In this document: in pieces, positions 4,782 through 36,463 of the stretch
Layout: each line of letters begins with the position of its first letter
Position numbering within the stretch: the stretch's first letter is position 1
Assembly: GCA_027592645.1 (NCBI GenBank)
Contig: JAQCKI010000003.1
Span: 1 to 61,070 of the forward strand
Direction of reading: 5' to 3'
From: Chloroflexota bacterium
GTDB taxonomy: Bacteria > Chloroflexota > Dehalococcoidia > UBA2979
DNA: 61,070 nt
Notes under the pieces: generated by a model
What the model was told of the DNA's origin: nothing
The model's input: the letters and a program-made list of their open reading frames with translations, nothing else
Database searches by the model: none
Position numbers and translations under genes: made by a program

Positions 4782-5522
4782 TCAGGCCGGTTGCAGGATC
4801 GTCTTCGCCCACTGGGGGTAGGTACCGGTCTCGATCATCCGCTCCTTCACCTCGGTGCGGAGGGTGCCCACCTCCTCGTCGGTCGGTGGCGGTGTCACCG
4901 GCACATTGGAGATGTCGCCGAGTTCGAAGCCGGTGTTGTCCTGCACCTGCTGCGCGGTGAACCCCTCGTGCACTGACTCAAGGCCGTAGCGGTTGGCGGC
5001 ACGGTCGAACGAGAGCACCGCCATGGTGGTGAAGATCTTGAACGCCTCCTGCGGGCGCTTGATCGATGGCGGCGTCACCATCGCGCCGGAGACAAAGTCC
5101 ACCTTTGGGACAAAGGTGCGCTTCGTGTGCTCGGTGCGGAAGAACAGGATCCGCTTCGCCGTGTACGACATCAGCCCGGAGCCGTAGCCACCCGGCAGCC
5201 GCAGGTCTGGCGCGTTGGGGTCGCCGACCACATGGAGGTTGAAGTTCCCCTCCGCATCGAACTGGATCGCGCTGTGGAAGAACAAGTCCAGCTTCCCGCG
5301 CTGTGACAGGAAGTGGATGTCCTTCCCCAGGTTCCGATCCAGTTGCTCGCTGCCCAGGATGATGATCTCCGCATTCGGGGCGTGGCTTGCCTCAGCGAGA
5401 AGCAGCGCCGCCGCCGGGATCATCGAGACTGCCCCGCACGCCGAGATCTCCCAATCGCGGATCTCCCGCGACATGAGAATGGCGAGCAGTTCGTCCGAGT
5501 TACAGGCGACGGCGCTGGTCAT
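4782..5522 (-). CDS. CoA-transferase-fold beta subunit (GctB/IpdB-like)
   Basis: DLFFHSAIQFDAEGNFN, RLPGGYGS, HTKRTFVPKVDFVS, LESVHEG, VQDNTGFEL; ATG directly follows the alpha-subunit TAG. Confidence 0.88.
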   Translation of the reverse strand: MTSAVACNSDELLAILMSREIRDWEISACGAVSMIPAAALLLAEASHAPNAEIIILGSEQLDRNLGKDIHFLSQRGKLDLFFHSAIQFDAEGNFNLHVVGDPNAPDLRLPGGYGSGLMSYTAKRILFFRTEHTKRTFVPKVDFVSGAMVTPPSIKRPQEAFKIFTTMAVLSFDRAANRYGLESVHEGFTAQQVQDNTGFELGDISNVPVTPPPTDEEVGTLRTEVKERMIETGTYPQWAKTILQPA

Positions 5523-6401
5523 CTACGCTCCCCCTCCGGCCGCGTGGGTCTCCACCCGGCTCCCCTGGCGAACCATCGCCTGGTACTCTTCCTCCGTCTT
5601 ACCGATGACGTACTTCTGCAGGTACGCGCGGTACGTGGCGTCGTCGGAGGCGGCGCGCAGGTACTCGCGGATGTGCTCCGCGTCCTGCTCGTAGTAGCCG
5701 GGAACACCAGCGGGGTGCGCGCCGCCCGGGGCGTGCACCACCGCAGTGACGTTGATGGCGGAGATGAACTGGCCGCCCTCGTCGTCCGCGGTGACCTTGT
5801 CCACGATCTCCTCGGCGGTGACGATGACGCGGTTGGAGGCCTGCGCCACCATCACGTCTTCGCCGTGCTTGCGGAGCAGCGCGTTGCCGTCTCGATCCGC
5901 CTTCAGCGCGTGCAGGATGGCGACGTTCGGCGTCTGCGCGATCGCGACGACGGTTTCCTCGGTCGGGTCGAAGGGGTTCGGGGCGATGATCATGTCATCG
6001 CGCCGCTTGAATACGTCCGTGCCGGCAAGGCCACGAACCGGGATGTAAGGGACGCCCATAGATCCAGCCTGGATCATCGAGTAGTGGACGCCTCAGGTGT
6101 TGTCGAGCGCGAAGATTCGACTTTGCTTCAAGAATCGGTCGAAGTTCGGTGCTGCCTGTGCGTACGGCTGGAAGCCGATGCTGCAGCACTCCATCGTCTT
6201 CACCTTCTCGGCACCGACGAGGAAGTCGAGGTTGATCGAACCGCCGACGACTCCGATGACGTGCAGATCCTGCACGTCGCCCCGCGCGAGTTCGCGGAGC
6301 ATTGCCATGGGCGCGTGGTTGAATCCCGCGCTCATCACCACCTGGTCACCGTCACGGACGATCCGCGCGGCGGCCTCCAGGCTCACCAGTTTGCTGCGCA
6401 T
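5523..6401 (-). CDS. CoA-transferase-fold alpha subunit (GctA/IpdA-like) with in-frame TGA at 6093-6095; probable selenoprotein (292 aa)
   Basis: ORFs 6093..6458 and 5523..6077 share a frame and join as ALDNT*GVHYSMIQAGSMGVPYIPVRG. N-terminus MRSKLVSLEAAARIVRDGD with AGAAAGGG upstream; C-terminal HALKADRDGN and GGAHP motifs. Hairpin follows the TGA. Confidence 0.85.
6051..6092 (-). promoter_or_regulatory. Putative bacterial SECIS element
   Basis: mRNA after UGA reads GGCGUCCA-CUACUCGAU-GAUCCA-GGC-UGGAUC-UA-UGGGCGUC: 8-bp lower stem (2 GU pairs), 6-bp perfect upper stem, G-initiated apical loop 23 nt from UGA. Confidence 0.7.
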
Positions 6402-6531: not shown

Positions 6532-7044
6532 ATGACCACCGCGAGCGGCCTGCTTGGCGCCGGCGAGATTGCGCCCGATTTCACGCTCGCCGCCGCCGAT
6601 GGCGAGCGGTACGCCCTCGCCGGTGCGCTCGCCCGCGGCTCCGTGCTGCTCACGTTCTTCTCGCTCGACTGCCAGGCCTGTGACGCCGCCTATCTCCACT
6701 GGGACGCAGCCTTCGAGGCGTACGCGGGCGACGACTTCTCACTCTGGGCGGTCGGTCTCGACCCGGAGCCGCAGGCGGCAGCGTTCTGGGAGAAGTCCGG
6801 TGTCTCGTTCCCAGTGCTCTTCGACGAAGGCGCGAGCGTGGGGGGCTACCGCCTCGCCTCCACGCCCTCACACGTCCTCGTCGGGCAGGACGGGCGCGTC
6901 GTCACCTCGTTCGACGCGTGGGACCGGCTCGCCTGGAACGGACTGCTGGCCGAGATCGCTTCACGCCTCGGCCGCCCCGCCATCGAGGTCGCCCCCGGCG
7001 ACGCACCGGAGTTCCGCCCCGGCTGCACGGTGCATGCGGGGTAG
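6532..7044 (+). CDS. AhpC/TSA (TlpA/peroxiredoxin-like) thioredoxin-fold protein
   Basis: GEIAPDFTL, CQAC (CxxC), SFPVLFD, STPSHVLV; extra C-terminal RPGC. Confidence 0.82.
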   Translation: MTTASGLLGAGEIAPDFTLAAADGERYALAGALARGSVLLTFFSLDCQACDAAYLHWDAAFEAYAGDDFSLWAVGLDPEPQAAAFWEKSGVSFPVLFDEGASVGGYRLASTPSHVLVGQDGRVVTSFDAWDRLAWNGLLAEIASRLGRPAIEVAPGDAPEFRPGCTVHAG

Positions 7045-7092: not shown

Positions 7093-7515
7093 ATGCCCGC
7101 CCGTCACCTGTCGATTCGCATGGATGAAGACGCGCTCGACCGCCTGGACGCCGAGAGTCGGCGCACCGGTCGCACCCGCTCGGACATCGCCAAGACGTTG
7201 CTGGACGAGGGGCTCCGCATGGAGCGCCACCCCGGCATCGTCTTTTGCACCGGCCCGGCCGGGCGTCGCCCCGCGCTCGCCGTCGGTCCCGATGTGTGGG
7301 AAGTCGCGCGGGTGGTGCGAGACCTCCGCGGTGGCCCCGGAGTCATCGAGCAGGCCGCCGAACTGACCGGACTGCCCGCGCGCGACATCGAGGTGGTCAT
7401 CCGCTACTACGCGGAGCACGCCGCTGAGATCGATGCATGGATCGACCGCGTCGATGCCGAAGCCGCGGAAGCGGAACAGCGCTGGCAGCGGGAGCAGGCG
7501 CTGCTCCAGCGGTGA
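7093..7515 (+). CDS. Antitoxin: ribbon-helix-helix plus DUF433-like domain
   Basis: HLSIRM...RSDIAKTLLDEGLRM (RHH); HPGIVF..GPAGRRP..GPDVWEV..IRYY; GTGA overlap with the PIN toxin gene. Confidence 0.82.
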   Translation: MPARHLSIRMDEDALDRLDAESRRTGRTRSDIAKTLLDEGLRMERHPGIVFCTGPAGRRPALAVGPDVWEVARVVRDLRGGPGVIEQAAELTGLPARDIEVVIRYYAEHAAEIDAWIDRVDAEAAEAEQRWQREQALLQR

Positions 7516-7868
7516 AGTTGCTGCTGGATGAGATGTGGCCACCCTCGATCGCCCGGACGCTGCGGGAGCGGGGTCACGATGTGATCGCCGTCGCGGAGCG
7601 TGACGACCTGCGATCGCAGCCGGACGAGTACATCTTTGCTGCCGCGCAGGTTGAGGGCCGTGTGATCGTCACCGAGAACGTCGCCGACTTCCGCCGCCTG
7701 GCTGAAGAGTTCGTTCGCCTCGGTCGTACCCATCCCGGCCTGATCTACACCACCAACCGCCAGTTCCCACGGGCCGATGCCCGCACCCCCGGGAGCCTCA
7801 ACCGTGCGCTGCTGCGTTTGCTCGACGGCGATGCCGCAATCACCGAGGTCTGGCTGTCGCCCGAGTAG
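7512..7868 (+). CDS. DUF5615 (VapC45-like) PIN-domain toxin
   Basis: MKLLLDEM, RGHDVIAV, PDEYIF, VIVTENVADF, HPGLI; GTG start overlaps the antitoxin TGA. Confidence 0.85.
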   Translation: MKLLLDEMWPPSIARTLRERGHDVIAVAERDDLRSQPDEYIFAAAQVEGRVIVTENVADFRRLAEEFVRLGRTHPGLIYTTNRQFPRADARTPGSLNRALLRLLDGDAAITEVWLSPE

Positions 7869-36163: not shown

Positions 36164-36463
36164 TCATCCACCCGGCGTCGCGCGGCGCCGCAGGACCTGG
36201 CCGAAGCCGTAGGTCAGTCCTGCCACGATGACCACGCCGGCGATGCCGGCTAGCGCCGTGGAGAGCACCTCGTTCTCGATGCCCGGGATGGTGTAGTCCG
36301 GCAGGATCTCGTAGCCGGGGACCTTGGCGGTGTCGATGAACTCGTGATCCTCGGCGACGCGCTCCAGGCCGTCCGGTTCGCCGGAGGCGAGCCAGGCCGT
36401 GGAGACGGCGAACACCGCCGAGATCAGGATGCCCGCAAGAAGCAGACCGCGTGTACGCCCCAT
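36164..36463 (-). CDS. PDGLE-domain auxiliary subunit (NikN-like)
   Basis: AS..PDGLERVA, LPDY, two TM segments. Confidence 0.85.
   Translation of the reverse strand: MGRTRGLLLAGILISAVFAVSTAWLASGEPDGLERVAEDHEFIDTAKVPGYEILPDYTIPGIENEVLSTALAGIAGVVIVAGLTYGFGQVLRRRATPGG

Follow-up and report, generated by a model that had tools for sequence, protein, structure and literature searches.

A predicted selenoprotein of the CoA-transferase fold in Dehalococcoidia with selenocysteine in the column of the IpdA glutamate and a partner subunit lacking the transferase glutamate

Glutaconate coenzyme A (CoA)-transferase, GctAB (PDB 1POI), is a two-subunit enzyme of the CoA_trans fold whose catalytic Glu lies in the β subunit, within the VESG motif of GctB. 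In family I transferases of this type, the motif (S/V)E(S/N)G carries this Glu, which forms the enzyme-CoA thioester. Two relatives of the same branch have abandoned CoA transfer. For IpdAB, the COCHEA-CoA hydrolase of steroid ring degradation (PDB 6CO6, 6CO9, 6COJ, 6CON), passages of PMC5380842 report that CoA-transferase activity is absent and that Gct Glu54β corresponds to Gly57β, while ring cleavage is described as a retro-Claisen hydrolysis in passages of PMC6678751. AibA/AibB, the 3-methylglutaconyl-CoA decarboxylase (PDB 5MZW and others), carries Cys56β in place of the Gct Glu, according to the corresponding passages of PMC7756340. Here we describe an α/β gene pair of this branch from a Chloroflexota bacterium (Dehalococcoidia, UBA2979; assembly GCA_027592645.1), encoded within positions 4,782 to 6,401 of a 61,070-nucleotide stretch of contig JAQCKI010000003.1, hereafter the window. 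The α subunit contains selenocysteine (Sec, U) in the column that holds Glu105 in IpdA, and the β subunit lacks the transferase Glu. The pair probably forms an enzyme of the GctAB/IpdAB/AibAB branch that is not a ping-pong CoA-transferase and in which the acyl portion of a bound acyl-CoA would be the target of catalysis by Sec. The features on which this proposal depends are located in the window as follows.

5523..6401, minus strand: α subunit gene, 292 codons plus a TAG stop; CoA_trans fold; selenoprotein with U103
6093..6095, minus strand: Sec codon (TGA, U103) of α, in the column of IpdA Glu105
6051..6092, minus strand: element resembling a selenocysteine insertion sequence (SECIS), with an inner hairpin at 6061-6075 (6-bp stem, GGC loop)
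4782..5522, minus strand: β subunit gene, 246 codons plus a stop; CoA_trans fold without the catalytic Glu
5355..5357, minus strand: codon of β Leu56, in the column of the GctB catalytic Glu (VESG) and of AibB Cys56
5436..5438, minus strand: codon of β Cys29, in the motif ACGAxSxIP, kept in the clade of the window's own pair

The α coding sequence runs from 6401 to 5526 on the minus strand and ends at a TAG stop at 5523-5525; its start Met at 6401 is confirmed by three full-length homologues that begin at the same Met. Counted from this start, the only in-frame TGA is codon 103, and with TGA read as U the protein contains ALDNTUGVHYSMIQAGSMGVPYIPVR. The β open reading frame (4785-5522, minus strand, 246 residues) opens with an ATG at 5522 that abuts the α stop, with GGAGGGGGAG just upstream, and its residues 47-60 read SHAPNAEIIILGSEQ. 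The architecture and gene order are those of GctAB. Pfam CoA_trans (PF01144) was detected in both subunits, with E-values of 2.5e-18 for α and 1.3e-10 for β, and no NCBIfam model scored above its cut-off for either. The initial annotation had quoted two strings, one from the β motif region and the ALDNTUG segment of α, and both are present in the translated reading frames of the window.

We conclude with high confidence that α is a genuine selenoprotein in which the UGA at 6093-6095 specifies Sec103. The source genome (2.15-Mb assembly, 87.5% complete) encodes the Sec machinery, with selA (546 bits), selB (302 bits) and selD (352 bits) above their curated cut-offs and a tRNA-Sec of 69.4 bits with anticodon TCA. 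Across the relatives, 37 of the 38 loci that could be scored have TGA in the U103 column and the remaining one has Cys, at α identities down to 38% (L087, whose α is truncated at a contig end, is omitted from this count). Protein databases reflect the same codon: among the best 120 relatives of α, 117 are C-terminal fragments whose first residue lies 2-12 residues past the site, and the other three (P0003, P0004 and P0020) are full-length proteins reading DNTCG, with Cys at the site. When the N-terminal 141 residues served as query, only two of these Cys forms and two fragments ending in DNT, just ahead of the TGA, were found. The site is U or C in 12/12 rows of alignment A1.

The RNA downstream of the codon is also conserved. 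A hairpin with a 6-bp stem and a GGC loop begins 17 nt past the UGA, and 97.3% of its cells are paired in 31 distinct loci, against 7-44% in controls in which the partners were slid (31 of 33 distinct segments were used; L054 and L056 were omitted as near-copies of L014 and L055). One pair, 22-34, covaries, being GU in 14, CG in 11 and AU in 5 of these loci. The stem uses GCT for Ala and GGA for Gly in 31/31 loci, even though the genomes range from 44 to 69% G+C. Among seven distinct close genes, synonymous diversity was 0.068 in codons U+1 to U+14, compared with a gene mean of 0.210 and with 0.24 and 0.29 in the flanks, and non-synonymous change over this same run of codons was zero. A perfect stem of at least 6 bp occurs in 8/8 Sec loci, yet also in 10/25 non-Sec loci. 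The hairpin expected of bacterial selenoproteins is therefore found downstream of this UGA on conservation, and its role in SelB binding is predicted. Known bacterial selenoprotein families likewise combine an in-frame UGA, an adjacent downstream hairpin, rare Cys orthologues and complete sel genes.

We then compared β with proteins of known structure. It matched the PDB chains of IpdB (9e-13), AibB (about 1e-10) and GctB (4e-10), and with a profile built from 34 β orthologues the GctB match rose to 5e-23. This profile pairs APDCHIIVESG of GctB with aPnaeliilgs, so that the catalytic Glu of GctB falls on Leu56 and ESG on LGS; the N-terminal GctB stretch is weak taken by itself (independent E-value 1.7) but runs ungapped from a shared (H/Y)AP(N/D) motif. 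In 121 β orthologues the Leu56 column contains Leu in 107, Arg in 14 and Glu in 0. Because the GctB catalytic Glu is Leu56 here, the pair is firmly predicted to be incapable of the ping-pong reaction of family I transferases, which proceeds through a Glu-CoA thioester. AibB differs in that a Cys sits at the β Glu position, where the present β has Leu and the Sec is in α.

The initial annotation had named a nearby Glu, Glu59 of the sequence GSEQ, as a residue that might hold the catalytic position and so speak against a swap. Its column holds Glu in only 33 of the 121 orthologues, with Val in 32, Pro in 22 and Asp in 14, and it was rejected as a conserved catalytic substitute. By comparison, β His70 is invariant in the 121 orthologues. 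Cys29 is kept in 119 of them; at the level of loci it is Cys in 25/39 and Thr or Ser in a sister clade, and it may represent a second active-site thiol.

For α, HMMER searches against PDB chains placed GctA first (E 1.3e-23), followed by AibA (1.8e-20) and IpdA (about 1e-18); GctAB is thus the best match of α in sequence and, as described below, in fold. The alignment with the Rhodococcus jostii IpdA chain 6co6_A (E 1.4e-18) pairs the segment that starts at LDNTUG with REMDEGMVKCGLEAAAARLPFLPIR of IpdA, gapless from the site to a shared PF/YxPxR motif. U103 falls on the E of REMDEGM in IpdA, and in chain 6coj_A this column contains Ala. The title of entry 6COJ is ‘IpdAB E105A COCHEA-COA complex’. 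Since the U column holds Ala in the chain titled E105A, U103 is, by alignment, the positional equivalent of IpdA Glu105. Glu105 is reportedly essential and placed as the catalytic base. In the same column GctA has Gln and AibA has Gly, the latter counted back from the shared PF/YxP motif. An 83-residue piece of α gave no match in the PDB, and a search of the ESM Atlas returned generic CoA-transferase clusters only.

The similarity to IpdAB therefore extends beyond the α/β CoA_trans fold: in both, the β Glu is lost and the key residue lies in α, in the same column and in the same segment running from x-G to PF/YxPxR. The two differ in the residue itself, Glu105 in IpdA versus Sec (rarely Cys) here, and are only about 25% identical. 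The initial annotation had proposed that β lacks the transferase Glu and that Sec occupies the IpdA-type α site, and both parts hold in these alignments. The IpdA segment it quoted is close to that of the RHA1 chain, although not identical to it letter for letter.

It had also predicted that loss of the β Glu would accompany Cys or Sec in α. The test covered 34 Chloroflexota loci whose fetched stretch contains both subunits. In them the β Glu (as F/Y/N-E-x-G) is kept in 17/17 loci with Asn, Ser or His in the α column and in 0/17 loci with Sec (8), Cys (3) or Glu (6). Five loci were omitted from this test: L017, L037, L039 and L043, in whose fetched stretch no same-strand β was found, and L016, which is the same place as L052. 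In a maximum-likelihood tree the Asn/Ser/His and Sec/Cys/Glu groups form the two sides of one branch, with support of 95 in the Shimodaira-Hasegawa approximate likelihood ratio test. On the Sec/Cys/Glu side, the clade of the window's own pair (U, C), a second U/C clade (EHxU/EHxC) and the Glu-type clades are all separate, and the exchange between Sec and Cys is repeated, with at least three changes needed per label. The pair thus belongs to a lineage with Sec, Cys or Glu in the α column and the β Glu gone, and the putative catalytic swap is supported by comparison.

On the basis of these comparisons, we propose that the active centre has shifted from β to α and would lie in an α/β cleft like that of IpdAB, where Sec would serve as a catalytic group on the acyl moiety of the bound acyl-CoA. 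Its most likely role would be that of a selenolate nucleophile attacking a β-keto carbonyl, a thioester or an activated double bond, giving a Se-acyl or Se-alkyl intermediate that water or a thiol would resolve. The net reaction would be a thiolase-like version of the retro-Claisen hydrolysis of IpdAB. We favour covalent catalysis over base-assisted hydration of the IpdAB kind, since a selenolate is a weak base but excels both as a nucleophile and as a leaving group; this preference is the least certain step of the mechanism. With the selenolate acting as nucleophile rather than base, the mechanism would probably be unlike that of IpdAB, and an acid/base role of Sec is a less likely alternative. 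In its most specific form the proposal is tentative and has less than an even chance of being correct: an almost obligately Sec-containing family would use selenium in non-redox covalent acyl-CoA catalysis, with the selenolate replacing both the β Glu of the transferases and the α Glu of IpdA, and with a Se-acyl (selenoester) or Se-alkyl intermediate in C-C cleavage, hydrolysis or isomerisation. A neighbouring redoxin, found only in the closest subclade, would keep the Sec reduced. Its gene lies next to α:

6532..7044, plus strand: AhpC/TSA-redoxin gene, divergent from α; Pfam AhpC-TSA 1.5e-12, Redoxin 2e-12; CQxC motif

Several observations weigh against a catalytic Sec of this kind. To our knowledge, selenoenzymes are redox enzymes with few exceptions, and in the closest subclade the one neighbour that is conserved is a CxxC redoxin. 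The correlation between the α site and the β Glu reflects one deep evolutionary split in this sample and counts as one event, not as 34 independent cases, because both groups lie either side of one branch. Glu105 of IpdA is reported to be a catalytic base (Crowe et al. 2018, PNAS), and, a selenolate being a poor base, the chemistry need not parallel that of IpdAB.

The AlphaFold2 prediction for P0003, a natural Cys homologue, reaches a mean predicted local distance difference test (pLDDT) score of 77.4, and Foldseek returned GctA, AibA and IpdA as its best matches, with template modelling (TM) scores of 0.73-0.83 (for GctA, E 2.3e-22 and TM 0.80/0.73). Around the site, pLDDT is only about 53-56, and no structure or model puts the selenium near the thioester.

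Regarding the RNA, the 71-nt stretch following the site shows no improvement in minimum free energy over shuffled sequences (z 0.95), and hairpin energy over a 32-nt stretch does not discriminate between Sec loci (n = 15, mean -10.8) and non-Sec loci (n = 29, mean -10.8). Folding energy was dropped as SECIS evidence, being no better than in shuffles or in non-Sec relatives, and since it is uninformative the SECIS case rests on conservation, covariation and synonymous sites. Finally, gene contexts are heterogeneous across clades and no pathway emerges from them: the varying neighbours include zinc-dependent alcohol dehydrogenase, malate synthase, MscS, enoyl-CoA hydratase, FAD oxidase, amidohydrolase and SecDF, as well as Glu/Leu dehydrogenase, cupin, PCMT, histone deacetylase-like, HpcH/CitE-like and SMC-like ATPase genes.

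The alternative that survives best, although we consider it doubtful, is a redox enzyme in which Sec would run a selenenylsulfide cycle with α Cys73, β Cys29 or the CoA thiol, making the pair a thiol-dependent reductase on a CoA compound with recycling by the redoxin. Such an enzyme might catalyse a reductive cleavage of an α-substituted acyl-CoA resembling that of glycine reductase, or reduce a CoA disulfide or persulfide. Redox proteins dominate the selenoprotein family tables of the reviews PMC13188914 and PMC9312934. At the locus itself, the redoxin, with its invariant CQxC and a C-terminal Cys, adjoins α divergently in 12/12 loci with at least 69% α identity while the other neighbours vary and the redoxin's own sequence falls to 45-49% identity. 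Both candidate partner thiols are well kept within the clade, α Cys73 in 26/26 loci of the DNTUG type and β Cys29 in the orthologues as given above.

This association does not extend to the more distant relatives, however: no redoxin is present in the fetched flanks (about 1.5 kb) of any locus with α identity of 61% or less. Moreover, the sister clade with the motif DSTUP retains Sec but has Gly at α position 73 and Thr or Ser at β position 29. There is no local redox motif of the CxxU type in α; the candidate partner Cys residues are distant in sequence and are not retained in that sister clade. The Pfam scan found no flavin, Fe-S or nicotinamide domain in α or β, and in the IpdA-type relatives, which are non-redox enzymes, the same column holds Glu. 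A maintenance role of the redoxin in keeping Sec reduced would be compatible with a nucleophilic and with a redox Sec alike.

It is improbable that the pair acts as an acyl carrier or transferase, in which Sec would accept the acyl moiety of acyl-CoA, forming a selenoester, and hand it to a thiol or amine, in a ping-pong reaction with enzyme-held acyl instead of CoA. Sec and Cys are classic acyl-accepting nucleophiles by established chemistry, as in thiolases, the pair keeps the CoA_trans fold together with its CoA-binding parts, and a family that uses Sec almost exclusively would seem to require an especially capable nucleophile and leaving group. Against these stand the lack of a conserved acceptor-related gene nearby and of any precedent in the CoA-transferase fold, and the present data do not separate such a carrier from a hydrolase or lyase. 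That the TGA is simply a stop, and α a split or decaying gene, is barely credible: nearly every database entry has the gene split by gene callers and folding energy gives the RNA structure no significance, but the frame and residues from the TGA to the next Met are fully conserved, the TGA recurs in the same column in clades down to the lowest identities sampled, Cys orthologues exist, the genome holds complete Sec machinery, the hairpin is conserved and covarying, and the true α stop is TAG.

Returning to the proposed Sec-dependent acyl-CoA enzyme, we determined how widely the family occurs. At E ≤ 1e-45, 56 of the 401 genomes sampled from the class Dehalococcoidia contain α, including 25/25, 11/12 and 5/5 genomes of three families; it was found in 4/25 other genomes of the source's own family and in 0/2 others of its genus. 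In the class-wide search 53/58 match rows carry a TGA. The intact β retrieved 446 database clusters at E ≤ 1e-20, and pattern scans located six loci in genome contigs and four in metagenome contigs. The family is almost wholly Sec-containing and common in Dehalococcoidia.

A term search of passages with the selenoprotein family tables of two reviews, PMC13188914 (2026) and PMC9312934 (2022), found no family of the CoA-transferase fold. The same kind of search in passages of the deep-Sep and BSepDB papers gave no entry for CoA-transferase, glutaconate or PF01144, and literature searches on selenocysteine or selenoproteins together with (glutaconate) CoA-transferase returned no description of such a protein. 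We therefore treat the Sec-bearing family as one that these searches did not find in print, and stop short of calling it unknown. What is new is a Sec-bearing variant within a known non-transferase branch of the CoA-transferase fold.

If confirmed, Sec at the catalytic centre of a fold that handles CoA thioesters would take selenium biochemistry into acyl-CoA chemistry or, alternatively, would reveal a new kind of thiol-dependent reductase on CoA compounds. For the GctAB fold, Sec/Cys would be a third route away from CoA transfer, after the α Glu of IpdAB and the β Cys of AibAB. The α subunit is invisible in current annotation because gene callers cut nearly every copy in two, and the practical upshot is that annotation should merge the two pieces of α into a single selenoprotein gene.

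Sec is also present outside the clade of the window's own pair. In the paralogous α clade with the motif EHxU/EHxC, which comes from other Chloroflexota genomes, loci L044, L046, L047, L048 and L050 have TGA and L018, L030 and L038 have Cys, all in the same column, and the β Glu is absent. L046 has a BioY biotin-transporter gene immediately upstream in the same orientation, and at L050 a biotin protein ligase gene follows β. If the proposed role of Sec is correct, sister clades of the same phylum with Sec in the same column, one of them beside genes of biotin transport and ligation, would make up a whole radiation of ‘seleno-CoA-transferase-like’ enzymes.

In the sister clade with the motifs DSTUP/DTTUP, an FMN TIM-barrel gene resembling IMP dehydrogenase/GMP reductase follows α-β on the same strand in at least nine loci (L052, L058, L091, L093-L095 and L097-L099). 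This α-β-TIM-barrel order recalls ipdA-ipdB-ipdC, although the Pfam family is not that of IpdC.

At the window's own locus, annotated for a few kb on each side, the neighbours are the redoxin, malate synthase and a ribbon-helix-helix (RHH)/PIN-like pair. The steroid-catabolic neighbours of the KstR2 type (ipdC, echA20 and fadA6) are absent from these few kb, so that the locus differs from that of IpdAB in having a redoxin and malate synthase in their place. The malate synthase gene is convergent and occurs nearby in the window and in three relatives, and one genome has a gene for an HpcH/HpaI-type (CitE-like) lyase downstream of β on the same strand (L088:2-721, minus strand). Together, the HpcH and malate synthase neighbours give a faint hint of C4/C5-dicarboxylyl-CoA metabolism that is too thin to use. 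The redoxin ends in FRPGCT.H, and the C-terminal Cys of this tail, besides the CQxC motif, is invariant in 6/6 orthologues.

Elsewhere in the genome, selD (G000:C73:60816-61754, minus strand) has one in-frame TGA and would encode a Sec-containing selenophosphate synthetase. A crude scan of the window for in-frame TGA codons with high third-position G+C on both sides gave one more site, at 36164-36166 on the minus strand, which may represent two genes in the same frame. Downstream of the redoxin, at 7093-7868 on the plus strand, overlapping genes for an RHH (CopG-like) and a DUF5615/PIN-like protein resemble a toxin-antitoxin pair.

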